From the sequence record LC739539.1: a DNA stretch of 64,000 nt, one strand, 5' to 3'. Below are positions 48,656 through 63,592 of the stretch, piece after piece. How positions within the stretch are numbered: position 1 is the stretch's first letter; each line of letters opens with the position of its first letter. The stretch is from Escherichia phage phiWec190. The notes below the pieces were generated by a model. The model was not told the origin of the DNA, did no database searches, and saw only the letters and a program-made list of their open reading frames with translations. Both the position numbers and the translations under genes were made by a program.

Positions 48656-48670
48656 ATGTAATTATTACAT
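48656..48670. repeat. perfect 15-bp palindrome ATGTAATTATTACAT
   Basis: Read directly. Confidence 0.55.
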
Positions 48671-49116: not shown

Positions 49117-49462
49117 GATATTTGAAGATTCCGGCGCGCAGAAGTGGAGGGGCCGGAAAATTCGCGTTCAGCAGTCCTGACGTACTCGCCATAAATCCTT
49201 GCTACCAAAGGCTTTTCTGTCTCTTTGCCGATGATATTCTTGCCGATAAATCGCAGGAACAGAGGGTATCGAAATAATCTCTCCCCCCAGATATTTTGCC
49301 GATTAATATTTGACCAAAGGGGTGTCAAAAATAACAGGTATATATGGAATAATTGATAGGGAATACCAATGATAAATGAATTGTAATTGCCGAGGATTGA
49401 TCGTAAGATGTTCCTCGTTGAGAGTTACGATGTTTGTCATGAAACCAAGAGAGGAGATTATC

Positions 49463-49843
49463 ATGCAAGAGAGTAAAAATGTTCCGTTGAGTAGTCCAAT
49501 GTTGTTAGCCTTCTATGAAAGTTGGCTTGCTGATCATCATACCAAAGAGCGCACAAGGAATGGGTTATGTGTATGCTTGGATACCTTTATCTGGGATGAG
49601 ATGTGGGACCGTAATTTCAGTGAGGAACAGGCAAAACAGCTTTGTGCCATAAGTGATGCAACATTAAAAGAAATGAAGAAACAATTCCGTTGCGCAGGAT
49701 TGTCTGTCAGTGTTCCCTTTAATGTGAACTACGAAGAATATGTGCGAGAGTATAACCACAGCAGAGCGCATGAAAACAAGCTTCGTGTAGAGTGGGTGCA
49801 AGAACGAGTGAAAGATTGTTTGCATAATCGTAAAGGAGCCTGA
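49463..49843 (+). CDS. paralogous small-protein family X, member 1
   Basis: Track ORF trimmed to MQESKNV... (RBS AGAGAGGAG); motifs FY..W...NGLCVCL, VPFN, LRVEWV. Confidence 0.55.
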   Translation: MQESKNVPLSSPMLLAFYESWLADHHTKERTRNGLCVCLDTFIWDEMWDRNFSEEQAKQLCAISDATLKEMKKQFRCAGLSVSVPFNVNYEEYVREYNHSRAHENKLRVEWVQERVKDCLHNRKGA

Positions 49844-49844
49844 T

Positions 49845-50207
49845 ATGAAAAATATTCCCTTGAGTAGTGATACTCTTCTGATGTTCTATAAGAATTGGAT
49901 GGCTAACCGTAGTGAGTTGGCGAACACAGCGAATGGCTTGTGCGTATGTTTAGGCAATTTTGCATGGGAAGTATTATATCCGAAGCATGGGGCTGATGTG
50001 GATATGTTCTGGGAGATGCGTGAAGCTTTAGGTGATGAAATGATGATACAGTTTATCTATGCAGGGTTGTCTAAAAGCACACCTTTCAATACTGACTTCT
50101 TCGACTACGAGGAAGAATGTGAAAACAGAAAATGTCATCTCAACAAACTGCGTGTGCAATGGGTGGAAGATCGTATCGAAGATGTAAATAATGCTTGCAT
50201 TGAATAA
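49845..50207 (+). CDS. family X, member 2
   Basis: FYKNWMA...NGLCVCL...TPFN...LNKLRVQWV. Confidence 0.55.
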   Translation: MKNIPLSSDTLLMFYKNWMANRSELANTANGLCVCLGNFAWEVLYPKHGADVDMFWEMREALGDEMMIQFIYAGLSKSTPFNTDFFDYEEECENRKCHLNKLRVQWVEDRIEDVNNACIE

Positions 50208-50266
50208 AAATGTCTGTATAGTGGTTTGCATACCGCGCATAACAGATAGCCAATGAGGAGATTGAA

Positions 50267-50476
50267 ATGTCAAATATGAAAACTGTATCCTTGTATTTAG
50301 CTAACACTGATCGTGTGCACACCCTTGCTAACGCAAGTCGTGTACTCGTGCAGTTCCGAAACTTCGCACCGTCCGTTGTGACAGGCAGTGAAACGTGTGT
50401 GATCGATTTCATCAATGAATATTTCTACGGGAATCCTGTTGCTCGTCACTTCGTGGAGAATATGAAAGATGCATAA
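50267..50476 (+). CDS. small hypothetical protein (69 aa)
   Basis: ORF track; RBS GAGGAG. Confidence 0.45.
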   Translation: MSNMKTVSLYLANTDRVHTLANASRVLVQFRNFAPSVVTGSETCVIDFINEYFYGNPVARHFVENMKDA

Positions 50477-50699
50477 CATGAAACGTATGAAAATTCGTAT
50501 TGAAACCGCTTGTGGGTATGTAGGTCTGATTGGTGCAGAGTTACCCGTTGTGCTGAATGCACAAATAGGGTATAGTGGGCTGGCCCATGTGCGCTTTTCG
50601 AAGATGATTGAGATACCAGGTTTCTTCTGGGATGAAGAAGATGCAGGTGAAGGGGAAGATTATGTTTTCCTTCCTCATGAATATGAAATTGTTCACTAA
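50469..50699 (+). CDS. small hypothetical protein, paralog of 55526..55747
   Basis: Shared MKI.I......GYVG...LP.V and DYVF motifs. Confidence 0.45.
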   Translation: MHNMKRMKIRIETACGYVGLIGAELPVVLNAQIGYSGLAHVRFSKMIEIPGFFWDEEDAGEGEDYVFLPHEYEIVH

Positions 50700-50708
50700 G
50701 GAGGGATT

Positions 50709-50948
50709 GTGATCACTGCAAAGCAGAATGAGAGAGCAAACAATTATCTGAACAATCTGTACTTCGATGCAGGGCACGACTGTCGTCCTGAACATAATTG
50801 CCAGTCTCTGCAAGAGAAGACACTGGCGTTGGTATTGACAGATCGTTTGTTCGATGGCTACGAAGAAGCCAATCGTATGTTAGCATCTCGTGCACGACGC
50901 GCTTCCATCTTTAATAAAATGGTGGCATTATGGGGAGGTAGAAAATGA
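50709..50948 (+). CDS. small hypothetical protein (79 aa, GTG start)
   Basis: ORF track; RBS AAGGAGGG. Confidence 0.45.
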   Translation: MITAKQNERANNYLNNLYFDAGHDCRPEHNCQSLQEKTLALVLTDRLFDGYEEANRMLASRARRASIFNKMVALWGGRK

Positions 50949-51403
50949 GCGAAAAACCAGTGAGAGCTTCCACAATATTGGGAGCATATGTGCAATGTGT
51001 TACAGATTATGTCAAGAGAAACTCCAGCCTACTGGAAGTGTATAGTGTAATTTCAGAAGATACTGGTGCTGTCTGTGTGAAACACATTCTATCCGAAACA
51101 CGTTATGAAGTGTTCCGTGCCACTTTGTTAGAATGTAATCGTGTTCGTGTGAACTACATGGACCCCAATTATCGCCGTGCCTTGGAAGATATTGAAGACT
51201 ATCTTCCTCGCTGCCCGACAGGTAATGTAAAAGTGGCAGAAGAAGCACCACAAGGTGTTGATTATCGTGTAGCCTTGTGGAAAAAGGCACGTCAACTACA
51301 AGTGCTGAATGAAATGAAAGAGGAGTTGGAGCAGGAACTGCTCAACGACTTCGATAAATCTCCAGAAGAGGCTTTAGCGTGGTTGCGTGAAGTAGAACAA
51401 TAA
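50945..51403 (+). CDS. hypothetical protein (152 aa)
   Basis: ORF track. Confidence 0.5.
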   Translation: MSEKPVRASTILGAYVQCVTDYVKRNSSLLEVYSVISEDTGAVCVKHILSETRYEVFRATLLECNRVRVNYMDPNYRRALEDIEDYLPRCPTGNVKVAEEAPQGVDYRVALWKKARQLQVLNEMKEELEQELLNDFDKSPEEALAWLREVEQ

Positions 51404-51425
51404 TTTAACATAAGAGGAGACACTA

Positions 51426-51944
51426 ATGTTTAAACCAGGTAATATCTATCGTTTCAGACAAGGCACGTACCAAGAGTTGTTTCAATCAATTTCTAAAAAG
51501 TTGGCTGAAGCGATCGGAGAGTTTTGGTTTGAAGTAGTCAAAACAGACGCTTACGGGAATGTCCTATCTCTTATCATCTTCGTAGAAGATAAGAAGCTGT
51601 TCTGGGATCAGGGAGTAGGTGATGCTCAAATGGATCGCTTCCTTATTGGGCACGATGAGATCGGATATTTCTTTGACGGAGGTCCGTTGTTAATGGTGGG
51701 CTTGCCGCCGCTGGCACCGCAGCCAGGCAAGGAGGTTTCCGCACACGACGATCGCCCTGATGCAGATATTGTGCCTAAAAAGTTTGCAGTTATTGTTGAC
51801 TACGTAGTAGTGCATACTGTATCATCTTTTTCAGAGGCGCAAGAAAGAGCCACGAAAGCGAAGAAAGAGAGTCCAGGGAAGCTTGTGGAGATTTATACTC
51901 TGCGTAGCACAGCGAAACTCGTAAGTAATGTGATATTTGACTAA
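51426..51944 (+). CDS. hypothetical protein, paralog of 51957..52469
   Basis: Similar N- and C-terminal segments. Confidence 0.5.
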   Translation: MFKPGNIYRFRQGTYQELFQSISKKLAEAIGEFWFEVVKTDAYGNVLSLIIFVEDKKLFWDQGVGDAQMDRFLIGHDEIGYFFDGGPLLMVGLPPLAPQPGKEVSAHDDRPDADIVPKKFAVIVDYVVVHTVSSFSEAQERATKAKKESPGKLVEIYTLRSTAKLVSNVIFD

Positions 51945-51956
51945 GAGGAGACTATT

Positions 51957-52469
51957 ATGTTTATTCAAGGGCATTCCTATAAATTCAAAAATACAAAAGA
52001 GTACAATGCGTTCCGTGAAGCTGTCAATCTGAACCGTAAGATTTCAGATCTGCTGGGTCCAAAACACTTCCTGGTGTTGGAGACAACAGAAAAAGGGGAT
52101 GTGGTTAAGTTCCAAACATTTGAAGGACATGTCTTTGAAGCTAATGCAGGTGCTTTCGTTGATTGTGGTATGTTGCTGTCCAAACATGAGTTAAAGCATT
52201 TTAACGATATCACTTGGTTTGACTCTTATGTTGAGGCAGAGGTTGGTTTGCCACCAGAACCAAAGGAAGAGCCAGTACAAGAGCCTTCTCAAGAGAGTCC
52301 AGAAGATAAAAAATATCTTGTAATGGTGGATCTTGTTCTCGTGGGTGTTGCCGGAAATATCCGAGATGCGGAAGATCTGGCACAATCCTATAAAGAAGAT
52401 AACGCTAAAGCCGTGGTTGAGATTTACAATCGCTACAGCACGGCACAAGTTAAAGTTTATTTTGAATAA
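51957..52469 (+). CDS. hypothetical protein, paralog of 51426..51944
   Basis: Tandem paralog. Confidence 0.5.
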   Translation: MFIQGHSYKFKNTKEYNAFREAVNLNRKISDLLGPKHFLVLETTEKGDVVKFQTFEGHVFEANAGAFVDCGMLLSKHELKHFNDITWFDSYVEAEVGLPPEPKEEPVQEPSQESPEDKKYLVMVDLVLVGVAGNIRDAEDLAQSYKEDNAKAVVEIYNRYSTAQVKVYFE

Positions 52470-52474
52470 ATAGC

Positions 52475-52503
52475 TTGACATAAGGATCACGTTGGTAGAT
52501 AAT
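52475..52503 (+). promoter_or_regulatory. sigma70-like promoter
   Basis: TTGACA 52475-80, 17 nt, GATAAT 52498-503. Confidence 0.5.
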
Positions 52504-52534
52504 CATTGCATACACAAATGAGAGGAGAAATGAA

Positions 52535-52834
52535 ATGAATTTGACTGATCAACTGCGCCGTATTGCAAAAGAGGCTTCCTTCCAATTCCCTATTGAAGAG
52601 GTGATTGAAACCTGTTTTTCTGAAGCACGGGCGGGAAACTTCTCAAAGAATTTCACGCCCTCTGATTTTGGTTTGGCTAATTCGCCTATCCATCCAGAGG
52701 CGATCTCCAATCAAGTGAAGTGGATGGATGAAGCAGTAGCAATTCTTCGTGAGCGTGGGCTTGTTGTTTATAGAGAAATGGACTCTGATGGAGCATATGA
52801 GTGGATCACTGTTGATTGGTCGGAGGTGAAATAA
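52535..52834 (+). CDS. hypothetical protein (99 aa)
   Basis: ORF track. Confidence 0.5.
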   Translation: MNLTDQLRRIAKEASFQFPIEEVIETCFSEARAGNFSKNFTPSDFGLANSPIHPEAISNQVKWMDEAVAILRERGLVVYREMDSDGAYEWITVDWSEVK

Positions 52835-53067
52835 TGAAAGGTAACAAGATGAAAGTTAATCAAGTGCCGAGCGCATACACTTTGTGGCTTGCGCGAGCGT
52901 TAAACCAGACGATCAAAGATCCTAAGAAGCCAATGAAGAGTGGGAAGAAGTTTATGTCTAAGGGCAAAAAAACCTTTGGCTTCACTCGTATGTCTGTTAA
53001 GATGAAAAGGCTGGGGTATAAGCCAAACTATGCGCGTTACCCTTCCGAATATAACTGGTTCGACTAA
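52834..53067 (+). CDS. small Lys-rich basic protein
   Basis: Track ORF trimmed to MKGNKMKV...; KKPMKSGKKFMSKGKK. Confidence 0.4.
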   Translation: MKGNKMKVNQVPSAYTLWLARALNQTIKDPKKPMKSGKKFMSKGKKTFGFTRMSVKMKRLGYKPNYARYPSEYNWFD

Positions 53068-53079
53068 AAGGAGAAAGCA

Positions 53080-53553
53080 ATGGCAGGTTTGAAACTGGAA
53101 ATGTTGACAAAGCAAGAATTTGTTCCCGAACATGGTGAAACTTACATTGCTTTCTTGATCAGTGATTTTTATGGGGATTTAGAGTACGTTGAACTGGGAT
53201 GTGAATTTCACTACCAAATGATCGACGCAGAAACTGGCTATTGCCTTCCTACTTCCGCAGTGTATAATGGGGATAACGGTATTCCTTTTAACACAGCAAT
53301 GCGTTGGGAAGGAAAGAATCGCTTCAAACTTCTCACCGAAGAAGAGAAAGAGGCATACAGGTATCACGAAGAAGAGGATCAACGCTTCTGGTGGGAGAAA
53401 ACTTGGTTCCTGTCTGATCGCCGTAATCTCCAGATCCACCCAGAAGAACTGGATGAAATGTCCATCGGGATTATGAAGAAGAAAGACTTCATGTTCCAGG
53501 TGAGAGAAGCTAATAAGTTCCGTGTTGCAACTAAAGAGGAGAACAAAACATGA
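53080..53553 (+). CDS. hypothetical protein (157 aa)
   Basis: ORF track. Confidence 0.5.
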   Translation: MAGLKLEMLTKQEFVPEHGETYIAFLISDFYGDLEYVELGCEFHYQMIDAETGYCLPTSAVYNGDNGIPFNTAMRWEGKNRFKLLTEEEKEAYRYHEEEDQRFWWEKTWFLSDRRNLQIHPEELDEMSIGIMKKKDFMFQVREANKFRVATKEENKT

Positions 53554-53747
53554 AAACATCTATTCGCGTAAAACATGATCCGAACACCAGTTACCCATAC
53601 GCATATGTTGAACGTCATGCAGGGGACTATTACACCATAACACGTAAAGTACCAACTGATACAGGGTTTAACTTTGATGTTATTGCACTGGATGATCAAG
53701 GTGTTGATAATCTGGTGAACGCACTAATCGCACTGAAGGAGGCATGA
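53550..53747 (+). CDS. small hypothetical protein (65 aa)
   Basis: ORF track. Confidence 0.45.
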   Translation: MKTSIRVKHDPNTSYPYAYVERHAGDYYTITRKVPTDTGFNFDVIALDDQGVDNLVNALIALKEA

Positions 53748-53748
53748 T

Positions 53749-53940
53749 ATGAAAATCCGACTGATTGAAAAGGGTGATACCATCTTCGAAACCCGTAAAG
53801 GGGAGATCACAGAGATTCCAGAAGAAAGATCAACAATCCTTGTGGACGGTGTTTTGAAATATTGCTGTAGTGTCTACAAATCTTACGAGAAGGATCAGTA
53901 TGGCGATCCAGAAATCTGGTTTGTAGGTGATGTGTATTAA
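53749..53940 (+). CDS. small hypothetical protein (63 aa)
   Basis: ORF track. Confidence 0.45.
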   Translation: MKIRLIEKGDTIFETRKGEITEIPEERSTILVDGVLKYCCSVYKSYEKDQYGDPEIWFVGDVY

Positions 53941-53949
53941 GGAGAGAAA

Positions 53950-54222
53950 ATGATCGGACATTTCTGTAAGGTGAAAGATATCTCCCTCTTCGAGGGAGAC
54001 GTTGTTAAGTTCGACTGTTTCACCTTGGTCTTTGAAAGATTTTTAGGTGGGGACATGGTGATCTTCAAGGTAGAAGGGACTGTTGACAATTACACAGCTT
54101 ACGGGGTGCATTCTGAAGTTTATTTTCATGGTTATGTGGAAAGACCTCTTGTAACTAAGATGTGGGAGGAGTATCATATAGACATTACAGACAAACGTGG
54201 TGTTTTCTGGAACGTTGAATAA
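53950..54222 (+). CDS. small hypothetical protein (90 aa)
   Basis: ORF track. Confidence 0.45.
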   Translation: MIGHFCKVKDISLFEGDVVKFDCFTLVFERFLGGDMVIFKVEGTVDNYTAYGVHSEVYFHGYVERPLVTKMWEEYHIDITDKRGVFWNVE

Positions 54223-54234
54223 GAGGAGAGAACA

Positions 54235-54393
54235 ATGGAGAGTAAGAACGCATTCGATAAAGGCTACGCACAGGGTTATAAATTCGGTATGTTTTGCCGC
54301 CACAATCCTTACGATCCCAATAAACATCCTGAAAAGTTTCAAGAGTGGGAAGAAGGGTTTTCTAAAGGTTATCAAGATAAGGGGTGGTTATGA
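54235..54393 (+). CDS. small hypothetical protein (52 aa, not in track)
   Basis: Hand-read MESKNAFDKGYAQGYKFGMFCRHNPYDPNKHPEKFQEWEEGFSKGYQDKGWL after GAGGAGAGAA RBS. Confidence 0.35.
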   Translation: MESKNAFDKGYAQGYKFGMFCRHNPYDPNKHPEKFQEWEEGFSKGYQDKGWL

Positions 54394-54701
54394 AAACATT
54401 AGAAGGGTATTACAAGGCATACGCAGATTGGTTAGATAATGGCGCTCCGCCTTACCGACCTTTCTCCCGTGGTGTAGGGCTGTGTAGCAATCTTCGATAT
54501 TACACTGGCGCTGACAATATCTCGATACTTACTCGCTTAGAGCGTCAACTTGCCGATCAGTTTGAAGATGCGGGACTCTCTGCTGCCTATCCTTTCGGGG
54601 AAGAAGCTTTTGATTTATGTTTGGACCAAAACAACATGCACCTTGACCTTAATCGTATTGCTTGGGTAAGAAACCACTTAGAAAAAGGAGAAAACCAATG
54701 A
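54390..54701 (+). CDS. family X, member 3
   Basis: Track ORF trimmed to MKTLEGYYKAYADWLDNGAP...GLCSNL...LNRIAWV. Confidence 0.55.
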   Translation: MKTLEGYYKAYADWLDNGAPPYRPFSRGVGLCSNLRYYTGADNISILTRLERQLADQFEDAGLSAAYPFGEEAFDLCLDQNNMHLDLNRIAWVRNHLEKGENQ

Positions 54702-55054
54702 AAACATTAGCTTACTACGAAAACCTACGTGATGCTTATATGAGCCTCTCAAATCCATCGGTCACTGCACAGCTTTTAATTGAAACCCTGGAAGACCTGA
54801 TCGCTCTTTATCAAGAACCTGCGAAGGATCTGCCATTGTTTCTCGGCGTTCCTGTAGATTTGCCGCCAGGTTGGAGGATTCTGATCGATGATATTAAGGT
54901 TATCCGTCTGATTGATAACTACGATCTGATTCGTGGGGTCATTCACCCTTGTATTCAGGGCGGTTACAATATAAATTGGGATAAAGAGTACCTGGATCAC
55001 CGTCAAGACCAGGCAGAGGCTATCAAATTTTTGATGGAGAACATTAAACGATGA
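54698..55054 (+). CDS. hypothetical protein (118 aa), possibly a divergent family X relative
   Basis: Track ORF trimmed to MKTLAYYENL... Confidence 0.45.
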   Translation: MKTLAYYENLRDAYMSLSNPSVTAQLLIETLEDLIALYQEPAKDLPLFLGVPVDLPPGWRILIDDIKVIRLIDNYDLIRGVIHPCIQGGYNINWDKEYLDHRQDQAEAIKFLMENIKR

Positions 55055-55338
55055 AAACATTACGAGAGTTCTATCAAGCTTACGCAGATTGGGTGGACGC
55101 GGGAGCGCCAGACGGCAATCCTTTCCGCCGTGAATGGGGTTTATGCACTAATCTCTATTTCTTCGGTTATTGTGATGATGATTTGCTATATGAAATGTCA
55201 AAGCAGTTCGAAGCTGCGGGGTTGGACCCAGAACTCCCGTTCAATAAAGATTGGGATGATTACGCGAGAGAGTATAAGGAAGATGGTTCTCATCTCAATG
55301 CTGTCCGTATCCAATGGGTAAGGGATCATCTCAAATGA
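55051..55338 (+). CDS. family X, member 4
   Basis: MKTLREFYQAYADWVDAGAP...GLCTNL...LPFN...VRIQWV. Confidence 0.55.
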   Translation: MKTLREFYQAYADWVDAGAPDGNPFRREWGLCTNLYFFGYCDDDLLYEMSKQFEAAGLDPELPFNKDWDDYAREYKEDGSHLNAVRIQWVRDHLK

Positions 55339-55529
55339 TTATAGAGATTAAACTGGAGTACGCCGGAGCGGTAGCTTTAGTTGCACAAATGCTTGACGCA
55401 AAGATCAACGAAGTGTATATTAATGCTTGGAGTGTGGAGATAGACGTGTCTATGGACAATCAAGCTAACCGTCTATTGGTTGCGGAATGTGAACTAAGAG
55501 GTTTACTTTATAAAGGAGAACCCTCATGA
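55335..55529 (+). CDS. small hypothetical protein (64 aa)
   Basis: Track ORF trimmed to internal Met. Confidence 0.4.
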   Translation: MIIEIKLEYAGAVALVAQMLDAKINEVYINAWSVEIDVSMDNQANRLLVAECELRGLLYKGEPS

Positions 55530-55747
55530 AGATTAAAGTTATCGATGTTACAGGTTACGTAGGTTTTGAAAATGTTCAACTTCCTTTTGTTGTTGAAGCA
55601 CACCTTTTCAGCGATGATTTGCAAACATTCTTCGTTTCCCAAGAGGAGATGGCTAAAGTGGAAGGTTGTGAGATCCTGGAAGATGATGTTTGGGAAGGTT
55701 GCGACTATGTATTCTTCTCTTGGGATGTGGAAGTGATCGAGGAATAA
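55526..55747 (+). CDS. small hypothetical protein, paralog of 50469..50699
   Basis: Shared motifs. Confidence 0.45.
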   Translation: MKIKVIDVTGYVGFENVQLPFVVEAHLFSDDLQTFFVSQEEMAKVEGCEILEDDVWEGCDYVFFSWDVEVIEE

Positions 55748-55751
55748 CGCG

Positions 55752-55907
55752 ATGACAGTACAAGAAGCTATGAAACTTACAGATAAAGAGTTGATAGCCC
55801 TTGGTAGAGAAGAACTCCAAAAGTGGTCAACAGCTTACGTCCACTTCCAGTCTACACGAGAGTTTGCCTTAAGGTGTAAAGAATTAATTAATCAAGCAGA
55901 AGGATAG
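55752..55907 (+). CDS. small hypothetical protein (51 aa, not in track)
   Basis: Hand-read MTVQEAMKLTDKELIALGREELQKWSTAYVHFQSTREFALRCKELINQAEG. Confidence 0.35.
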   Translation: MTVQEAMKLTDKELIALGREELQKWSTAYVHFQSTREFALRCKELINQAEG

Positions 55908-55910
55908 GAA

Positions 55911-56123
55911 ATGTCTTACTTTACAAGAGTTATTTCGTTGTGTGAAAAGCAATATGAGAGTGATTATGGGCTTTTTGATGTTCCTCTGGACCTAACAGGG
56001 TATTGTTCATGTGGGAATAAGTTGAAAGAAGCCTTGATTTACGCAGAATGTAGTGATAATCTTGTTAAAGTGAAAGTGTGCAGGAAGTGTCACTCGATTC
56101 TTCCTGCTTCTATGAATAAGTGA
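55911..56123 (+). CDS. small zinc-ribbon-like protein
   Basis: 70 aa; CSCGNK...CRKCHS. Confidence 0.45.
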   Translation: MSYFTRVISLCEKQYESDYGLFDVPLDLTGYCSCGNKLKEALIYAECSDNLVKVKVCRKCHSILPASMNK

Positions 56124-56204
56124 GAATGTGGTATGATAGAGACTATTATTTTCGTTGTCCTGATTATTATTTTAGGTTTCTTAATGTACGAGTAGGAGGT
56201 TTAA

Positions 56205-56651
56205 ATGAGTAAAGTGAAACATTATGGTGTAAATCCCAACGACGCTTGGCTTATGTGTTCGGATGATCCGACAGAAGGGACATATGTGAAGTATGAAGAT
56301 TATGAAACCCTGTCGAAGGCAGTGATCGCACTGTTAACAGATATTCGCTCCCGTTATCCAGGGCAAGACTTCACTTGTCCACATATTCAGCTTCTTGCCC
56401 TTCTGGTGGAAGGGGAGGAACAAGTGGAAGATGGCTTCAAGCGTGTAGAGTATCAAGGTGAAACTTTAGATGTGCCAGAGTTTGTCAATTACATCGCAAC
56501 AGACTCAAGTGGTGATCGCTATGGCTACAGCCATAAGCCGGAGGTTCCTGATTGGATTCATGCTTGGCGTACTTCTGTTAGTACCTCAGACTATTACTTC
56601 CTTGGCGTGGGTAGCAGTAAAGATTGGCGTGATTCCTTGGTTCAGGTTTAA
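56205..56651 (+). CDS. hypothetical protein (148 aa)
   Basis: ORF track; RBS GGAGG. Confidence 0.5.
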   Translation: MSKVKHYGVNPNDAWLMCSDDPTEGTYVKYEDYETLSKAVIALLTDIRSRYPGQDFTCPHIQLLALLVEGEEQVEDGFKRVEYQGETLDVPEFVNYIATDSSGDRYGYSHKPEVPDWIHAWRTSVSTSDYYFLGVGSSKDWRDSLVQV

Positions 56652-56655
56652 TACT

Positions 56656-56937
56656 ATGAAAGAAACATTACCAGCAGCATATCGTCTGAATGATGAACGT
56701 GTTTGGGAGTGGACTGACGTTTCTTGTTTTTACCCTGAAATAGTTCAGTATTGGCGAGCAAAAGGGTGTGTTGTAGTTATCAATCCTTGTGGACCAGTAG
56801 ATGAAGATTGCCTCTACTTGGATGGAAAGTGGCATAGCTATTGTCGCTGGCCTTTTGAGTGGATGCTTAACGAAGATCTCCCAGAGGGTTGGGAGTATCC
56901 CAAAGCAAAGGAGAGAAAGAATGTCTTACGGAAATAA
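56656..56937 (+). CDS. hypothetical protein (93 aa)
   Basis: In-frame tail of track ORF 56470..56937 from MKETLPAAY... Confidence 0.4.
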   Translation: MKETLPAAYRLNDERVWEWTDVSCFYPEIVQYWRAKGCVVVINPCGPVDEDCLYLDGKWHSYCRWPFEWMLNEDLPEGWEYPKAKERKNVLRK

Positions 56938-57166
56938 AACCCGTTTATTCCATGTAGTACGTTTCCTGGATACAAAGAAAGAATACCTTCTGCCTTTCAT
57001 TACCGAACCGGATCAAGAAGTGTTTCGCCTTACCGAAGATGGTGATTTTGCCACTACCAGTTTGGTAAGTTATATGATTAACGAAGCTATTGACGAGGGG
57101 CGAGCAATCTCTGTAGGTTTAGCTACGCTCTCTTTGTCTGTAATCTCCAATGAGGAGGTAGAATGA
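56921..57166 (+). CDS. hypothetical protein (81 aa)
   Basis: Track ORF trimmed to MSYGNKT... (RBS GGAGAGAAAG). Confidence 0.4.
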   Translation: MSYGNKTRLFHVVRFLDTKKEYLLPFITEPDQEVFRLTEDGDFATTSLVSYMINEAIDEGRAISVGLATLSLSVISNEEVE

Positions 57167-57687
57167 GCAAGGTATTCGCTGTTTACTGTAGTCTCTCTAA
57201 GCATTCCTTTGTTACCACTGGTAAAACTTACGAGGCTGAATGGGAGGACAAGGAAGGAGAGGTATTCCGATTTACTTGTGACGATGGGGACTATGCGTGG
57301 GATACATTGAAAGATAGTAAGCTGGGGCGTTGGTCTATTGTGGGAGAGAAAGAAGAACCTTTCATTCTTGTTCCTGCTGACACTTCTGTGAACTGGGAAG
57401 TATCTAAGGCTGAACAGGAGAAAGCTACCCTTCTCCGTAGTCTGGAACATGCCGTTGAACAATGGAAGGAAGCGCAGCGCAACTACGATATTTCTCGTAA
57501 ACACAACCGTGTGCTTGAAGCACGTATAGAATTGCTGGCTCTTAGTTTGCGAAGCCTTATTCTCACTATTGAGCAAGGACTTTCCAGTCCTGATGGGTTC
57601 CCGATCAGCGATGTAGAACACGAAGTGTATCTGGCACGGGGTGCCTATTATCATATTAAGCAAGAATCTGTAGAAGGAGAGAAATGA
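57163..57687 (+). CDS. hypothetical protein (174 aa)
   Basis: ORF track. Confidence 0.5.
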   Translation: MSKVFAVYCSLSKHSFVTTGKTYEAEWEDKEGEVFRFTCDDGDYAWDTLKDSKLGRWSIVGEKEEPFILVPADTSVNWEVSKAEQEKATLLRSLEHAVEQWKEAQRNYDISRKHNRVLEARIELLALSLRSLILTIEQGLSSPDGFPISDVEHEVYLARGAYYHIKQESVEGEK

Positions 57688-57884
57688 TGGAAGAAAAACT
57701 GGAACGTATTATCGAGTTAGCCATGTCTATCGGCTACGACGATTGTTTTCTCCAAACCATTGGGGAAACACAGAGTGATTACGACTCTTGGGTGAAAGAG
57801 TTGGAAGAACTCAAAACTTCCTTGATTGCTGACTTTGCTGAAGCAGAGGATAAAGCAGATCGTTACAACTATCTGTGTCGATAA
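57684..57884 (+). CDS. small acidic protein (66 aa)
   Basis: ORF track. Confidence 0.45.
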   Translation: MMEEKLERIIELAMSIGYDDCFLQTIGETQSDYDSWVKELEELKTSLIADFAEAEDKADRYNYLCR

Positions 57885-57887
57885 AGC

Positions 57888-57915
57888 TTGACACCTGATT
57901 TCTGTATGGTATGCT
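57888..57915 (+). promoter_or_regulatory. sigma70-like promoter (extended -10)
   Basis: TTGACA 57888-93, 16 nt, TGgTATGCT. Confidence 0.4.
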
Positions 57916-57944
57916 TACCACATCAAGACAATAAGGAGAGAAAA

Positions 57945-58289
57945 ATGACTAAACTTTTGTGCGTATCATCTTCCGTTCCATATTTCACTGTTGGTAAGCA
58001 ATACCCTGTGACAAATACGGACGAGGATGTAGATTACTACTGGATCAATAGTGATGACGGAACAGATTGTGTTATTGAGTTGAGAATGGGGTGCGCCACT
58101 TTTGAGGTGGTAGCTGAAGATGTGATGCGTCTCTTCGAAATCCGATATACAAAAGATAACGGCAGTATTAAAACTTATCAGATCCCAGCCCTTTCTATCT
58201 ACGACGCATGTGTACGTTTGGGTCAGATTTACGGGGATGATAAATACTACCGTGACGATGTGTCCATTCATGTGGTAGAGGTGGTGTAA
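57945..58289 (+). CDS. hypothetical protein (114 aa)
   Basis: Track ORF 57888..58289 begins on the -35 TTG; trimmed to MTKLLCV... after AAGGAGAG RBS. Confidence 0.45.
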   Translation: MTKLLCVSSSVPYFTVGKQYPVTNTDEDVDYYWINSDDGTDCVIELRMGCATFEVVAEDVMRLFEIRYTKDNGSIKTYQIPALSIYDACVRLGQIYGDDKYYRDDVSIHVVEVV

Positions 58290-58290
58290 C

Positions 58291-58542
58291 ATGAATAAAG
58301 ATCGGTTTCTTTCTTTAGTCGCGGAAGCGCCTTTTGATGTTGTTGGGGTCAGATTATGGAAAGACAGAAACTACGGGTTAGATGTTCAAACATATTCTCT
58401 TTGGTTGGTCGGGGAGCACAGTTTAGATGAAAGCTTGTGCATGGGTATGGATACTCTTTCCCTTTGTTCAAAGTTTAGAAGCTTAGAACGCGCAAACAAA
58501 GAGCAAGAAAAACTGACGAGGTGGCTAAATGAAAACAAGTAA
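58291..58542 (+). CDS. small hypothetical protein (83 aa)
   Basis: ORF track. Confidence 0.45.
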   Translation: MNKDRFLSLVAEAPFDVVGVRLWKDRNYGLDVQTYSLWLVGEHSLDESLCMGMDTLSLCSKFRSLERANKEQEKLTRWLNENK

Positions 58543-58855
58543 AGATCTGATGAAGTTTTACAAAAAGTACCTTGCCTGGATCGAAGATGGTGCCCCTTAC
58601 GGTAGACCGTTTCTGCCAAATTGTGGTTTGTGTGCCAATTTGTTCGATTACGTGCACAGAGATAATTACAATCCTATTATAACAACCTTATCAGATGAAA
58701 TGCACGCGCAGTTCCACTATAAAGGGTTGAGTCAAGAACTCCCTTTCAATGAGAACTATGATGCATATGTTTTAGAGTCAGACGCAGATGCCTGTCACCT
58801 GAACGTGGACAGGATTAATTGGGTGAGAGATCGTATTGCAGAGGAGGATGAATAA
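58529..58855 (+). CDS. family X, member 5
   Basis: FYKKYLAWIEDGAP...GLCANL...LPFN...HLNVDRINWV. Confidence 0.55.
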   Translation: MKTSKDLMKFYKKYLAWIEDGAPYGRPFLPNCGLCANLFDYVHRDNYNPIITTLSDEMHAQFHYKGLSQELPFNENYDAYVLESDADACHLNVDRINWVRDRIAEEDE

Positions 58856-59082
58856 TGGCTGCTTATAATTGGTATGAACTTGAAGCTGTTTGTCAGTTTT
58901 ATGATTCAATAGTGTTGCGCGACCCGATCTGTCAAGAATTGAGTCGTCGTGCAAGTGCATTGGCGATCAATGTTAAAGTGCATGATTGGAACGCAGATCT
59001 GGAAAAAGAATTGGAATTCCTTTTGGAAACAACCCGTGTCTTCCGTAAAGTGTTCCCTGAATGGTTTGAGATGGAGGAATAA
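58855..59082 (+). CDS. small hypothetical protein (75 aa)
   Basis: ORF track. Confidence 0.45.
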   Translation: MAAYNWYELEAVCQFYDSIVLRDPICQELSRRASALAINVKVHDWNADLEKELEFLLETTRVFRKVFPEWFEMEE

Positions 59083-59084
59083 GC

Positions 59085-59297
59085 ATGTGGATTGTCCGTC
59101 TTAAGTATGATGGCAAGTTTCCGTGGGAGAAAGATGTTTGTGCCTGTGATTCGGCAGCACATGCCAAAGCAGCGGGTCAGGCAGTAGTTGACATATATAA
59201 CAACACTTCCGTTGATCCAGAAATGGGAGGTGTTACAATGAGCATGTTCACTTACTATTCTTTTGAGGTTTACTATCACGAAGGAGAGTGGAAATGA
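59085..59297 (+). CDS. small hypothetical protein (70 aa)
   Basis: ORF track. Confidence 0.45.
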   Translation: MWIVRLKYDGKFPWEKDVCACDSAAHAKAAGQAVVDIYNNTSVDPEMGGVTMSMFTYYSFEVYYHEGEWK

Positions 59298-59614
59298 GCG
59301 AAGAACTATTAACATTTTACCGCACGTATTTGGCATGGTTGGAAGCTGGTGCTCCTGAAGGTAAACCGTTCACCCGTTGCACAGGTTTGTGCACGAACCT
59401 CTATGATTTTTACGATATGGGAGAAAGCGAACGATACGAACCTGTACTGGATGAAATGCATGAGCAGTTCTACCACAAAGATTTGGTTATGGTGTTGCCT
59501 TTCAATAGTAATTTTGGAAAGTACACCTTAGAAGCGGAAAAAAGCCGTTGTCATTTGAATGTGGATCGTGTGAACTGGGTAAAAGAACGTGTAGCAGAAG
59601 AAATAATTGGTTGA
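59288..59614 (+). CDS. family X, member 6
   Basis: FYRTYLAWLEAGAP...GLCTNL...LPFN...HLNVDRVNWV. Confidence 0.55.
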   Translation: MEMSEELLTFYRTYLAWLEAGAPEGKPFTRCTGLCTNLYDFYDMGESERYEPVLDEMHEQFYHKDLVMVLPFNSNFGKYTLEAEKSRCHLNVDRVNWVKERVAEEIIG

Positions 59615-59639
59615 CAGAAGGATCTGTCTTTGGCATAAT
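59611..59639 (+). promoter_or_regulatory. sigma70-like promoter with inverted repeat GACAGA-AGGA-TCTGTC over -35/spacer
   Basis: TTGACA 59611-16, 17 nt, CATAAT 59634-39. Confidence 0.5.
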
Positions 59640-59668
59640 CATCTCATCGAAACAGAGAGGAGAAAATC

Positions 59669-60223
59669 ATGAAACAGTTTATCTGCACCCGTTCCACCAA
59701 CAGCGATATCCAGAGAGGCAAGGTTATCAAAGGAGAACTCTTCCACGCAAATGGTAAGAAATACATTTTGCTGAAGGACTCTTTCAACGGGGAACTTCCA
59801 CGTTGCACCTTCTTCAACTACAACACCACGTTTGCTTTAGAGGGAGATGTTTGGGAGTGGGCTGAACTTCATCCTTTTTACGAAGAAGAGCAGGAAGAAG
59901 GTCAGGAAGCGTATGTGGGAAGTTTACGTGATAAACTGCGTAATAAAGCACTGCAAGCAAATTCTCATTTTACAGAGATGGTAGACTCCGTTCTGTTAGA
60001 GATCGAAGATTGTGCGGAGCAAGGGAAGTTTGAAAAATACTTTGAACCTTCCAGTTTTGGTTTGTGCAATAGCCCTTCTTCTTATGAGCAGATAAGTGAA
60101 CAGAAAAGAGGGGTAAATGTTGTAGCTACAATGTTACGTGCAAAAGGTTTGGATGTAACGTTGGCAAACGCAGAGCACAGTATTTTTGGGATTATCAAAC
60201 ACATCATTATAAGTTGGAACTAA
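59669..60223 (+). CDS. hypothetical protein (184 aa)
   Basis: ORF track. Confidence 0.5.
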   Translation: MKQFICTRSTNSDIQRGKVIKGELFHANGKKYILLKDSFNGELPRCTFFNYNTTFALEGDVWEWAELHPFYEEEQEEGQEAYVGSLRDKLRNKALQANSHFTEMVDSVLLEIEDCAEQGKFEKYFEPSSFGLCNSPSSYEQISEQKRGVNVVATMLRAKGLDVTLANAEHSIFGIIKHIIISWN

Positions 60224-60235
60224 GAGGAGATAAAA

Positions 60236-60451
60236 ATGCAAATCGAAGAGTCGGAAGAAGAACTGATGTTCATGGGTTTGAATATGTATCGTGTAGATTA
60301 CACCATGTGTGGTGTGGAATACTCTGTCCGAGTGGGAGCTTCGTCCAAATTCCAAGCCCCTTTCCGAGCAGGTCTTATCTTAGGGACTTGTCTTGCAAAC
60401 ATTGATGATGTGCAGATCCAGAGAGTAGTACTGGAAGCAGAAAACATTTGA
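60236..60451 (+). CDS. small hypothetical protein (71 aa)
   Basis: ORF track. Confidence 0.45.
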   Translation: MQIEESEEELMFMGLNMYRVDYTMCGVEYSVRVGASSKFQAPFRAGLILGTCLANIDDVQIQRVVLEAENI

Positions 60452-60476
60452 CAGAGAGTGTCAGACATATTATAGT
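60448..60476 (+). promoter_or_regulatory. sigma70-like promoter with inverted repeat TGACA-GAGAG-TGTCA over -35
   Basis: TTGACA 60448-53, 17 nt, TATAGT 60471-76. Confidence 0.5.
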
Positions 60477-60506
60477 GATTGCATCAACAACAAGAGGAGA
60501 GAGAAC

Positions 60507-60821
60507 ATGCAAATAGAAGAATTAGAAGTGATCCTGAAAGCGGCTGTTGAGAAAGGTGCAATCGCTAAGTATGAGCGTCAGAAAGAGAAGCACGACACCC
60601 ATTTCGCTCGTGAGTTTTACATCACAGGTGTAGACGGCACAGAAGTGACGCTGGAATGGTATGTAAACATTATGACCTTACATATCGGCAGTTTCGAGAT
60701 GTGGGTGAAGAATGTGGGGATCTCTGATACCCACCCTGGCTTCCGAGTGAGTTTGGATTTCACCTCTTATGAAGGTGATCGCTGTGCCCGTATTGGTCGT
60801 CGCAATTCATTTCAAGGCTAA
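60507..60821 (+). CDS. hypothetical protein (104 aa)
   Basis: ORF track. Confidence 0.5.
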   Translation: MQIEELEVILKAAVEKGAIAKYERQKEKHDTHFAREFYITGVDGTEVTLEWYVNIMTLHIGSFEMWVKNVGISDTHPGFRVSLDFTSYEGDRCARIGRRNSFQG

Positions 60822-60842
60822 CCAAAGGTTACTGGAGGGTTT

Positions 60843-61082
60843 ATGAAAAAGGCATTACTGATCGCATTGTTTCTGGTGACTCCTGCTGTTATGGCAGACA
60901 CTGTGCCGGAAGTTAACGGCTTCTCGGACTCAAAAGTTGTAACCAAGGATCGCTTTGTTCAAACTGGCATGACTGGGGCTTTAGATTACATCATCACAGA
61001 CACAAAGACAGGGTGCCAGTTTGCTATCGTCTATAATGGCGGGGTCATCTCTTTGGGTTGCTTTTCGGAGTTTAAGAAATGA
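60843..61082 (+). CDS. secreted/periplasmic protein (79 aa)
   Basis: Signal peptide MKKALLIALFLVTPAVMA. Confidence 0.5.
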   Translation: MKKALLIALFLVTPAVMADTVPEVNGFSDSKVVTKDRFVQTGMTGALDYIITDTKTGCQFAIVYNGGVISLGCFSEFKK

Positions 61083-61465
61083 AAAACATTCGTGTGAAGT
61101 TTCTTGCCTCTAAGTTTATTAATGTCCGAGACTATTTGACCATAGGTCGGATTTACAACGCCAAAGTAGCAGATGAGAACTGTTTCATTGTCGTGGATGA
61201 TGAAGGATCTGAACTCTATTGTTTGTTCGAGAATTGCAGCTACGGAGTGTGGCAAGTTATGTCGGAAGAAGCTGAAAAGAAAGCGAGTGGAATGTGTATC
61301 CCAGAAGGGTATGTCTTGGTCCCGAAAGAGCCTACCCCAGAAATGTTGGAGGCAGCGAAGGACTGGACGGGGCTAACCCGAACAGCCGAAGTTGTCTATA
61401 AGTCGATGATCGCGGCTTCGCCGCTTATTGGAAAAGGGGGAGGGGAAGAAAATGAGGTCAAGTGA
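61079..61465 (+). CDS. hypothetical protein (128 aa)
   Basis: ORF track. Confidence 0.5.
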   Translation: MKNIRVKFLASKFINVRDYLTIGRIYNAKVADENCFIVVDDEGSELYCLFENCSYGVWQVMSEEAEKKASGMCIPEGYVLVPKEPTPEMLEAAKDWTGLTRTAEVVYKSMIAASPLIGKGGGEENEVK

Positions 61466-61796
61466 AGCTTTACTGGAATTTTATGAGTGGTGGTTGGATC
61501 AGGCTATGAGCCAAGATCCGAACGAAAACATCAAAGCTTGCGGTTTGTGTCATGCAGTGGAAGTGTATTGCGGGGAAGACCAAGATTTGTATCTTTCCCT
61601 CTCTGATGAAATGGTAGAGCAGTTTGAAGCGGAAGGTTTAGAATGGAACTATCCGTTCGATGGCGAGTGGGATCTGTCAGGTTGGATTCCTTGTTATTGG
61701 ATTGAGAAGAAGTCCGGCACCCAACACAAAAACTTCGATCGTCTTGCTTGGGTGTATGACCGTCTGGAGGAGGTGCAGCATGGCGAAGAAGAATAA
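61452..61796 (+). CDS. family X, member 7 (divergent)
   Basis: Track ORF trimmed to MRSSEALLEFYEWWLD...CGLCHAV...YPFDG...FDRLAWV. Confidence 0.5.
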   Translation: MRSSEALLEFYEWWLDQAMSQDPNENIKACGLCHAVEVYCGEDQDLYLSLSDEMVEQFEAEGLEWNYPFDGEWDLSGWIPCYWIEKKSGTQHKNFDRLAWVYDRLEEVQHGEEE

Positions 61797-62034
61797 AATG
61801 GGGCATAGTCAAGAGGGAGAACCGCACTATTTACACCCGTTTGACCCCAAAAACAAGGCAACGATTCATCGTCAATGGGTTGAGACACGTATGACAAAGT
61901 GTCCGATCCCAGCAGCGGAGCAATACAACAAAAAGTATACAGCGGAGTTCATAGAATACACTTTCATCAATAACAAAGGTAAAGAGGTTTACGTTGAAGA
62001 AATGATTCTGTGGATCAAATGGGAGGATGTATGA
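61780..62034 (+). CDS. small hypothetical protein (84 aa)
   Basis: Track ORF trimmed to MAKKNKMGH... Confidence 0.4.
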   Translation: MAKKNKMGHSQEGEPHYLHPFDPKNKATIHRQWVETRMTKCPIPAAEQYNKKYTAEFIEYTFINNKGKEVYVEEMILWIKWEDV

Positions 62035-62237
62035 GTTTTCAAACTTTCTTTAATCTGTTATTGATGTTGGTCTTTTTTGGATTTCTGATCCTCTTTGCTA
62101 ATGCGGTATCAGACGTGCAGAATGAGCAGATAGCCCTTAAAGAACAATGCACCGTTTGGAAACAGGAAAAAGATGCCAATAAATTCCTTGACAATAACTG
62201 CTTCAAGTTTGTAAAATGGAATCCTGATAACGATTGA
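62031..62237 (+). CDS. small protein with N-terminal membrane anchor
   Basis: Track ORF trimmed to MSFQTFFNLLLMLVFFGFLILFANA... Confidence 0.4.
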   Translation: MSFQTFFNLLLMLVFFGFLILFANAVSDVQNEQIALKEQCTVWKQEKDANKFLDNNCFKFVKWNPDND

Positions 62238-62247
62238 GGAGTTGATC

Positions 62248-62922
62248 ATGAAAAAGTTTGTTGTTTACAGCCGTTTGTCTAAACAGAAGAAAGGTGAAGC
62301 CCAGTATGGTATGCAGAGCCAGGAAAACGATATCCGTTATTTCTTGGAATCTGTGCCGGAGGCTGAAGTGATCGGAGAGTTTTCTGAATTTTATTCAGGT
62401 AAAGGCGACTGGAAGCAACGTAAAGAACTTGTCAAGGCTGTTGAGATGTGTAAAGCTACAGGAGCAACGCTTTTGGTAGCTAAAGTGGACCGTTTAGGTC
62501 GTAACAACGCCTCGGTAGCAATCCTCTTGGAAATGATTGACGTTAAGATTGCGATCATGCCGGATGCAGACAAGATGGTTATTCAGCTTCTATCTGTCCT
62601 TGCAGAACAGGAAGTACGTGGTATGGCAGATCGTATCAAAAAAGGTTTGGCAGTAGCTAAGAGCAAAGGTATTCTCTTAGGATCTGCATCTCCAAAATAT
62701 AAAGAGTCTCGTAAAGATTACAGACAATCTCGAAAAAATGATAAAAGCACCTTGTATGCCGAGAAGCTTCGTGATAAAGTTACGTTAATGAGGAAAGCAG
62801 GAGCATCTCTGACTCGAATCGCAGAGATCTTTACTGAAGAGAAAATTGAAACTGTTCGTGGCAGTACCACATGGCACCCTTATACGGTTCAACGTCTGCT
62901 TAACAAACTGAACATTAAATAG
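62248..62922 (+). CDS. serine recombinase (resolvase/invertase family)
   Basis: VVYSRLSKQKKG (Y.R.S..Q with catalytic-Ser position), LLVAKVDRLGRN, LLSVLAEQEVRGMADRIKKGLAVAKSKG, C-terminal HTH-like tail. Confidence 0.75.
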   Translation: MKKFVVYSRLSKQKKGEAQYGMQSQENDIRYFLESVPEAEVIGEFSEFYSGKGDWKQRKELVKAVEMCKATGATLLVAKVDRLGRNNASVAILLEMIDVKIAIMPDADKMVIQLLSVLAEQEVRGMADRIKKGLAVAKSKGILLGSASPKYKESRKDYRQSRKNDKSTLYAEKLRDKVTLMRKAGASLTRIAEIFTEEKIETVRGSTTWHPYTVQRLLNKLNIK

Positions 62923-62930
62923 GAGCTAAA

Positions 62931-63260
62931 ATGACAAAGAACGAAGTGATTATCCAACAATTTCTTAAGGCATGGTTAGCCTGGGCTGAAGTGGCTCCGA
63001 AAAGAGAGAATGTCAAACCCTTCAGCACACTTGTTGGGCTTTGCGACTCTTTGTCTTACTGGTTACTGGAACAAGGGTTTTCATTAAAAGAAATTGACGA
63101 AGTTACCGAAGCATTTGCAGAAATGCTTTTCAAAGATTTCCAAGACACCTTGTACCCATTTGGTGACTTAGCTTATATGCAGGATTATGAGCACGGCACG
63201 CAACATATGAACAAAGAACGGTTGGCATGGGTTAAATCAAAACTGAAAGGGGGTAAATAA
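62931..63260 (+). CDS. family X, member 8 (divergent)
   Basis: FLKAWLAWAEVAP...LVGLCDSL...YPFGD...NKERLAWV. Confidence 0.5.
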   Translation: MTKNEVIIQQFLKAWLAWAEVAPKRENVKPFSTLVGLCDSLSYWLLEQGFSLKEIDEVTEAFAEMLFKDFQDTLYPFGDLAYMQDYEHGTQHMNKERLAWVKSKLKGGK

Positions 63261-63262: not shown

Positions 63263-63592
63263 ATGAGTGCAATTCTACAAGAACTCTATTTTAACATTGT
63301 GGTTGTTGCTGTAGCGGTATGTGTCATAGGAAGCATCTACGCCTTAGACCGCACTTTTAAGAAGCGTAACAAACATCAAAAACTCTCCTACAATACGGTT
63401 TTTGTGTACAACTACAGGCCGAGGGAGGGTAAGAGTCTGGGTGTGGGGAATATTGATGTACAATTTACAAATTGGCCTCCCACTCTGGATGATATTCGGG
63501 AAGTAGAGACTCAAATTAACGATACTTATGATTATAACGGTGTAGTTATGATCAACATCCTTCCAGTATCCAAAAACAAGGAGAAAACATGA
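63263..63592 (+). CDS. membrane-anchored hypothetical protein (109 aa)
   Basis: N-terminal TM helix ILQELYFNIVVVAVAVCVIGSIYAL. Confidence 0.45.
   Translation: MSAILQELYFNIVVVAVAVCVIGSIYALDRTFKKRNKHQKLSYNTVFVYNYRPREGKSLGVGNIDVQFTNWPPTLDDIREVETQINDTYDYNGVVMINILPVSKNKEKT

Follow-up and report, generated by a model that had tools for sequence, protein, structure and literature searches.

Family X genes in the window

The occurrence of a family of small proteins, here called family X, was assessed in a 64,000-nucleotide stretch of DNA recorded as Escherichia phage phiWec190 (LC739539.1; the window, to which positions refer unless stated otherwise). As reference we used the annotation of LC739537.1 (Escherichia phage phiWec188; Phapecoctavirus, Stephanstirmvirinae), which is 100% identical to the window, the window being the minus strand of that record. 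Eight family X open reading frames (ORFs), all on the plus strand, were indeed present at the positions given in the original prediction, which had been made from the letters of the window; they coincide with coding sequences (CDSs) of LC739537.1 annotated as "hypothetical protein," and a Shine-Dalgarno-like motif precedes each of them (Table 1). The member that had been placed at 59288 is a real ORF, but it is annotated from the ATG at 59294, with 59288 being an upstream in-frame GTG.

Alignment of the members with MAFFT showed conservation of the motifs that had been quoted for them, in the form FY..Y..W...GAP...PF.R..GLC.NL, QF..AGL...YPFN, and HLN..R..WV. A hidden Markov model (HMM) built from the eight members returned these members with E values of 1e-31 to 1e-46, compared with 0.4 for the next ORF among the 749 six-frame ORFs of the window. 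When single members were left out of the profile, every omitted member was recovered, with E values ranging from 1.7e-14 for X8, the most divergent member in the window, to 3e-37 for X5 (best nonmember, 0.12). In an all-versus-all BLASTP comparison of the complete genome, family X formed one component at 1e-5, and this comparison added a ninth copy (X9) ~1.1 kb past the window end, so that the predicted number of eight holds for the window and nine is the number for the genome. Pairwise identity across the nine copies was 20 to 51%. Family X was by far the largest paralog family; all others in the 149.8-kb genome had two members each. Chance similarity and noncoding status of the family X members were excluded.

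Table 1. Family X genes of phiWec188, in window coordinates unless stated otherwise
Member	Coordinates	Strand	Length (aa)	HMM E value	Remarks
X1	49463..49843	+	126	7.8e-36	CDS BDU13337.1; ribosome-binding site GAGAGGAG
X2	49845..50207	+	120	1.2e-36	starts 1 nt past X1 stop codon
X3	54390..54701	+	103	7.2e-38	
X4	55051..55338	+	95	4.7e-39	
X5	58529..58855	+	108	1.3e-46	
X6	59294..59614	+	106 (from annotated ATG)	1.2e-40	
X7	61452..61796	+	114	2.4e-37	
X8	62931..63260	+	109	1e-31	one Cys
X9 (ninth copy)	record 105322-105675; extended window coordinates 65089-65442				BDU13288.1; all-versus-all BLASTP, complete genome

Family identity and distribution

Scans of the members against Pfam, NCBIfam, and PADLOC gave chance-level matches only (best matches to the PADLOC defense-system models, E = 0.007 to 0.01, for one member each). 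The sole library match was PHROG 2510 ("unknown function"), which was matched by all eight members (best E = 2.5e-31), and the family, which had been reported as unrecognized, corresponded to no curated family. ORFs of phage "outra" that matched the family HMM carry the annotation note VOG7392 (pVOG).

The window-derived HMM also matched the gp3 homolog of the N4-like phage vB_Eco_SPSP, annotated "gp3 [Escherichia phage N4]" (E = 1.7e-21; 70.6 bits). N4-type gp3 retains the GLC, PFN, and HLN..R..W motifs, and N4 gp3 itself was matched by tblastn. By these matches, gp3 of coliphage N4 and family X are the same domain, present in one copy in N4 and in nine copies in phiWec188.

An exhaustive HMMER search of 1.84 billion cluster representatives (50% identity) returned 1,988 proteins at E ≤ 1e-3, of which 1,075 reached E ≤ 1e-10, and nearly all of these relatives were 95 to 135 aa long. 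Among 184 sequences inspected, one domain was found in 162, two tandem domains in 21, and three in 1; a few relatives had N-terminal hydrophobic segments or unmatched extensions, and no Pfam partner domain was found in ten longer or fused relatives. By tblastn against 50,697 phage records, the family was detected in 262. These included Stephanstirmvirinae; N4-like Schitoviridae (phages of Escherichia, Achromobacter, Erwinia, Delftia, and Alcaligenes); Autographiviridae (phages of Rhizobium, Ralstonia, and Klebsiella); several siphoviruses; and a Xanthomonas jumbo phage. Further carriers were one P1-like phage-plasmid, a T4-like Yersinia phage, and the singleton coliphage PTXU04. The named hosts of the carriers were all Proteobacteria. 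No match was obtained upon scanning bacterial genomes with a single-protein query, and the motif-rich alignment gave one Sphingopyxis locus, which was uninformative. The family is specific to phages and prophages.

The few records labeled "Campylobacter" were 146-kb genomes that matched like Stephanstirmvirinae. OR584014.1 ("Pseudomonas phage PsgM04F") was 95% identical over 97% of a 6-kb query (window positions 54000 to 60000), and OP562383.1 ("Acinetobacter phage ABPW7") and MG065689.1 ("Campylobacter phage A110a") also matched E. coli Phapecoctavirus or related Stephanstirmvirinae genomes. The host labels of these three records look doubtful, or else the host range is unusually broad.

Arrays and fusions in other phages

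Counting of family members in related phages, as had been proposed, gave 4 to 9 copies in the Stephanstirmvirinae and disclosed arrays elsewhere. In comparable regions, phiWec188 and phiWec186 had 9 copies each, phAPEC8 had 7, ZCKP1 had at least 6, and "outra" (Justusliebigvirus) had 4. Outside this group, arrays have arisen independently in at least four other phage lineages. PTXU04 carries gp87-86-85 in tandem, the T4-like Yersinia phage JC221 has four tandem copies downstream of DNA ligase, and the podovirus Rhizobium phage RHph_N37 has three domains, distributed over one single-domain ORF and one two-domain ORF. A 12.4-kb metagenomic contig (L012, from Logan SRR16229188) holds nine full and two partial family domains. 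Ten of these fall in a run of consecutive overlapping ORFs (2568-5891), two of which are two-domain fusions. Pairwise identity among the L012 copies was 13 to 66%, and the Cys, the Pro-Phe, and the Arg were found in all full copies. This contig, which is unclassified and had no nucleotide match in the phage collection, carries the densest family array seen in this analysis.

Predicted fold

X5, the copy nearest the family consensus, was chosen for modeling. The AlphaFold2 model (37-sequence alignment) reached a predicted local distance difference test score (pLDDT) of 94.4 and a predicted template modeling score (pTM) of 0.87 and consisted of five helices (residues 5 to 19, 34 to 42, 50 to 64, 77 to 85, and 93 to 107). 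A Foldseek search with this model against 350,542 PDB chains gave a best E value of 0.84 with template modeling (TM) scores below 0.35, profile searches of PDB sequences gave no match, and matches in BFVD were to uncharacterized phage proteins only (TM, 0.7 to 0.85). The search for a known fold that had been suggested for the family thus yielded a five-helix model without a PDB relative: the fold is confidently predicted, and the model showed no counterpart among solved structures. HHpred results reported by the authors of the CRISPRi-ART screen for three PTXU04 members likewise read "unknown" (PMC11879866, supplementary file 8).

In the Foldseek search against the PDB, neither an Ocr/ArdA-like fold nor likeness to the known cyclic-nucleotide sponges Acb2, Tad1, and Tad2 was found. 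HEPN RNases are all-helical domains with the motif R-x(4-6)-H at the start of the last helix; family X lacks this motif, and HEPN membership was rejected. A pseudodimer model of a two-domain relative (P0175) was discarded, as its alignment covered only the first half and the pLDDT of the second domain was ~55.

Conserved residues, variability, and charge

Conservation was counted in 205 aligned domains (150 best representatives plus homologous-protein matches and phage copies) and is given in X5 numbering. Cys35 (204/205), Pro72 (205/205), Phe73 (204/205), and Arg95 (205/205) were essentially invariant. High conservation was found (domains of 205 in parentheses) at Phe10 (197), Gly33 (197), Trp98 (196), Phe62 (195), Leu34 (193), Val99 (183), Asn92 (180), Tyr11 (179), Trp17 (177), Tyr80 (171), His90 (165; otherwise mostly Tyr [21] or Trp [7]), Gln61 (163), Glu57 (151), Glu83 (137), Asn37 (137), Arg30 (125), and Asn74 (123). 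The resulting signature, consisting of GLC at the start of helix 2, the PF(N/G) loop, and H/Y-x-N-x-x-R-x-x-W-V, occurred in each of the nine phiWec188 copies. In the model, Cys35 falls within the first turn of helix 2, and Arg95 is located at the start of helix 5. The core is most likely made up of the aromatic and aliphatic positions, because these follow an i/i+3/i+4/i+7 spacing on the helices assigned by the predicted secondary structure, and Asn92-Pro93 and Asn74 may be helix caps. The conserved polar positions point to a shared biochemical core and would count against a pure binding scaffold.

Additional Cys residues were enriched at positions 89, 42, 37, 84, and 32. At positions 89 (Cys in 30%), 42 (17%), and 37 (13%), hydrophobic residues are also admitted, whereas Cys35 tolerates no substitution, and by this pattern Cys35 is singled out as functionally critical. 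A general metal or redox site was not supported, as 84 of the 205 domains have only Cys35 and His90 and no Cys at 31, 32, 37, or 89. A papain-like or Cys-His peptidase or amidase was also rejected, given that the His is found in only 165 of the 205 domains (Tyr, Trp, or others in the remainder) and that the all-helical fold is without a match.

Within four ortholog groups, variability was concentrated at residues 5 to 6, 18 to 32, 43 to 46, 52 to 56, and 82 to 87, and the conserved positions did not vary. By structural element, the loops between helices 1 and 2 and between helices 2 and 3 and the region around helix 4 held most of this variability. On the whole, the family was mildly acidic, and charge differed widely across it (median isoelectric point [pI], 5.4; net charge, −17 to +10; basic domains, 12%). 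The phiWec188 copies had pI values of 4.1 to 6.5; eight of the nine were acidic (pI 4.1 to 5.4), X1 had a pI of 6.5, and X7 was the most acidic (pI 4.1; 27 Asp plus Glu in 114 residues).

Selection and history of the copies

Ratios of nonsynonymous to synonymous substitution rates (dN/dS; Nei-Gojobori) were calculated for orthologs only, because synonymous sites are saturated among paralogs with 20 to 51% protein identity. The phiWec186 orthologs of the family copies were 87 to 98% identical to them. In phAPEC8, clear orthologs were found only for X5 (83%) and X6 (98%), and the other slots were occupied by alleles at 33 to 50%. X6 had orthologs at 95 to 98% identity in phiWec186, phAPEC8, and ZCKP1, and X3 had no ortholog in phiWec186 or phAPEC8, where its best match was 40 to 44% identical. 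For 12 ortholog pairs, dN/dS was 0.06 to 0.60, with most values at or below 0.43 and the highest values in pairs with fewer than ten differences; it was 0.23 to 0.31 for X1, 0.43 for X2, 0.07 for X4 (98% identity to the phiWec186 ortholog), and 0.12 for X5 (versus phiWec186 and phAPEC8). Over the pairs compared, these values show every family X copy to be kept by purifying selection; the dN/dS analysis that had been recommended thus revealed purifying selection on each copy but no signal of pervasive positive selection.

The repeated duplication put forward in the original prediction was borne out in part. It agrees with the size of the paralog family and with X1/X2 (40% identity) and X5/X6 (51% identity), which were mutual nearest paralogs in a distance analysis, but X4, X8, and X9 resembled their own paralogs no more, or even less, than they resembled members carried by unrelated phages. 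The nearest nonorthologs of these three belong to other clusters; those of X8 are a protein of a Klebsiella T7-like phage and a temperate-phage protein. This kinship outside the genome, together with the sharply different allele sets of phages within the genus, shows that ancient divergence, horizontal exchange, or both contributed and that the array is not one recent local burst.

Further two-member paralog pairs were present in the small-gene block (50469-50699/55526-55747, 52535-52834/59669-60223, 51426-51944/51957-52469, and 41136-41327/46133-46387). In the first of these pairs, the members are the second genes downstream of X2 and of X4, respectively, and the genes in between are unrelated. 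A clean segmental copy comprising X2-50267-50469 and X4-55314-55526 was rejected, since the outer genes are paralogous and the middle genes are without similarity.

Genomic context and expression timing

The family X genes lie in a block of ~40 kb of small plus-strand genes; the strand switch is at ~29.4 kb, and the block ends at approximately record position 100.7 kb. Sigma-70-like sites matching 11 of 12 consensus positions were found on the coding strand at 47388, 52475, 59611, 60448, and 62188, all with a perfect TTGACA −35 hexamer and all in intergenic spacers immediately upstream of ORFs. These sites suggest that host RNA polymerase transcribes the small-gene block.

In other phages, positions of family members were as follows. 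In N4, gp3 is flanked by gp1/gp2 and gp15/gp16 and is located ~1.2 kb from the left genome end; gp1, gp2, gp15, and gp16 are early gene products (reviewed in PMC4496689). In a metagenomic temperate phage, a family member comes second among the genes that follow a CI-like repressor, and an Escherichia coli lambdoid prophage has one in the operon on the repressor side, adjoining an Ead/Ea22 gene. From gene position, family members would be expressed early.

Among ten scanned neighbors of the phiWec188 genes, Pfam matches were obtained only for a resolvase-family ORF and a NinX homolog. The former is a serine-recombinase ORF (62242-62922; Resolvase N-terminal domain, E = 1.7e-16) that lies immediately upstream of X8 in this lytic phage and whose phAPEC8 homolog is annotated as a putative site-specific recombinase. 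The latter (63589-63924; PF10765, E = 4.4e-12) is a homolog of lambdoid NinX in a lytic myovirus and lies two genes downstream of X8.

X1, which is in tandem with X2, is the first gene after a gap of ~1.55 kb (47918-49462; GC content, 0.37) without a plus-strand ORF of ≥60 aa. A strong intrinsic terminator (47895-47917) directly precedes the gap, and phAPEC8, phiWec186, ZCKP1, and "outra" (Justusliebigvirus) have an equivalent unannotated gap in the corresponding position. Over its first ~800 nt, most 100-nt windows were 79 to 97% column identical among four Phapecoctavirus genomes (one was 57%), compared with 26 to 74% in the second half. The gap holds degenerate A/C-rich repeats, and no Rfam match was obtained for positions 44 to 64 kb. 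Candidate roles for the gap are an origin, a regulatory region, and a noncoding RNA.

Putative function

In the published CRISPRi-ART screen, PTXU04_00085, PTXU04_00086, and PTXU04_00087 had scores of −1.99, −1.51, and −2.32, with Kolmogorov-Smirnov (KS) P values of 0.63, 0.54, and 0.81, respectively, and all were classified as "Not Fit" (PMC11879866, supplementary file 16). These scores are weakly compatible with accessory or redundant genes.

With somewhat less than even confidence, we favor the explanation that family X proteins are dispensable early host-directed effectors that combine a conserved five-helix scaffold with variable loops. Each protein would be a phage-specific cytoplasmic five-helix domain of ~100 aa, made early from host-type promoters and dispensable in defense-poor laboratory hosts, that acts on host molecules as a takeover or counterdefense effector. 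A conserved pocket around Cys35 and Arg95 would provide a common chemistry, such as ligand binding or covalent capture, and the variable loops of each paralog would choose the host or defense target. Adjacent paralogs may act as hetero-oligomers, because adjacent paralogs are fused into one chain in other phages. The Cys35/Arg95 site suggests a shared chemistry, and the loops, arrays, and fusions suggest diversified specificity. The idea raised in the original prediction, that each copy may be aimed at a different variant of a host factor or defense system, would agree with the early location, the dispensability in the knockdown screen, and the loop-centered variability.

Several points weigh against this explanation. 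The early timing is a prediction from gene position. Whole-gene dN/dS values were below 1, without a signal of an arms race or of pervasive positive selection. Some 10 polar positions, including the invariant Cys and Arg, are common to all copies and to ~200 divergent domains, and polar conservation on this scale is better explained by an enzyme, or by one ligand common to the paralogs, than by protein-protein binding that has diversified; the clustering of Cys35, Arg95, His90, and Asn92 in space is assumed from the predicted secondary structure. The CRISPRi-ART screen also missed essential genes, such as that for the PTXU04 large terminase (PMC11879866), and paralogs may compensate for each other in a knockdown. 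Finally, Vequintavirinae and relatives, including phi92-like and rV5-like phages, were described in the BASEL study as "exceptionally susceptible" to restriction-modification (PMC8594841). As the phi92-like genus (phage "outra") carries four family copies, at least one common defense class is apparently not countered, which also argues against a general anti-restriction role.

The polar conservation speaks for an alternative that we consider unlikely, namely, that family X is a small thiol enzyme that covalently modifies or cleaves a host macromolecule or metabolite, with a substrate that differs by paralog. Cys35 would be the nucleophile, its first-turn location within a helix favoring a thiolate, and Arg95, His90, Asn92, and Glu57 would be helpers. 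The conservation of Cys35, Arg95, and ~10 polar positions is typical of active sites and not of binding scaffolds, and the pattern is retained in the nine phiWec188 copies and in all full-length L012 copies. However, His90 is replaced by Tyr or Trp in ~14% of the domains, including all three domains of one relative (P0037), which speaks against a classical Cys-His dyad; enzymes of ~100 aa that are all helical are rare, the Foldseek search of the PDB gave no fold likeness to known enzymes, and Asn92-Pro93 and Asn74 could be mere helix caps.

It is distinctly improbable that the proteins are sponges for abortive-infection signals (cyclic oligonucleotides or ADP-ribose derivatives) in the manner of Acb2, Tad1, and Tad2, with paralogs tuned to different signals. 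Small, abundant, early proteins that have many conserved aromatic residues and also conserved Arg and Asn would suit this role, as would diverged arrays, which fit many ligands, and tandem fusions, which suggest oligomeric assemblies. Structural likeness to Acb2, Tad1, Tad2, or any PDB entry was absent, however, and the putative ligand-contact residues are invariant, whereas different ligands call for variation.

We give equally little credence to a role of the domain in the phage's own program, for example, as a cofactor of transcription, replication, or injection. The conserved core suggests one conserved partner, and the N4 neighbors gp1 and gp2 are cofactors of phage RNA polymerase II (PMC4496689). 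Against such a role, the carriers (N4-like, T7-like, T4-like, lambdoid, P1-like, and Stephanstirmvirinae) differ in their transcription and replication strategies, copy number ranges from 1 to >9, and the three PTXU04 copies were not required for plaques in the screen (PMC11879866).

An acidic DNA mimic of the Ocr/ArdA type that blocks restriction-modification or other DNA-binding defenses at genome entry is disfavored as very improbable: the acidity of eight of the nine copies, above all X7, and the location of N4 gp3, comparable to that of T7 gene 0.3 near the left genome end, are outweighed by the family median pI of 5.4 with 12% basic domains, the lack of an Ocr/ArdA fold match, and the exceptional restriction-modification sensitivity reported for the phi92-like and rV5-like relatives (PMC8594841).

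Significance and comparison with known systems

Already known are the sequence cluster (PHROG 2510, with VOG7392 as an annotation note) and the genes, deposited as hypothetical proteins. The literature searched on N4 gp3, the PHROG and VOG identifiers, phAPEC8, and Stephanstirmvirinae early genes contained no statement of function, and no account was found in it of the kinship with N4 gp3, of how large the family is, of its lack of structural relatives, of the invariant Cys/Arg signature, or of the recurrence of arrays in unrelated phages. Family X is a large, widespread domain (~2,000 clusters at 50% identity, from proteobacterial phages of many lifestyles) that has no Pfam entry and no solved or similar structure, and the classical model phage N4 carries one of its members. 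The early gene position, the dispensability of three copies in one screen, the strict Cys/Arg site, and the repeated independent arrays and fusions are traits like those of counterdefense or takeover proteins and make family X a good candidate for such a function. For comparative work, nine natural variants of one scaffold are available in the phiWec188 array, and N4 gp3 and PTXU04 gp85 to gp87 are genetically tractable systems with one copy and three copies, respectively. Identification of a target would annotate thousands of "hypothetical" phage genes together.

Early phage proteins of solved structure that act against defenses or in host takeover (Ocr, ArdA, Acb2, Tad1/Tad2, and AsiA-type proteins) are like family X in size, early context, accessory nature, and, for some, acidity. 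Another likeness is with the Bcl-2-like proteins of poxviruses (A46, A52, B14, K7, and N1), which are small, all helical, early, and individually dispensable in culture and are present as many diverged paralogs per genome, each binding a different host immune component, with almost no conserved polar residues common to the paralogs. Family X would share with them the small helical early diverged paralogs and, by analogy, perhaps the host-target part; there is no sequence or fold relation, and the invariant Cys/Arg constellation is found in family X only. A bolder form of the effector explanation, which we regard as improbable, is that family X constitutes a new structural class of counterdefense effector, in which a helix-capping Cys with Arg95 would perform an undescribed chemistry, for example, covalent capture or modification of an immune component or signal, and in which the arrays would have diversified as in poxviruses. 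If so, one unexplored mechanism would be common to ~2,000 sequence clusters from N4-like, T7-like, T4-like, lambdoid, P1-like, and rV5/phAPEC8-like phages. As a type, family X is comparable to the accessory multigene families known from viruses but has an uncharacterized fold.

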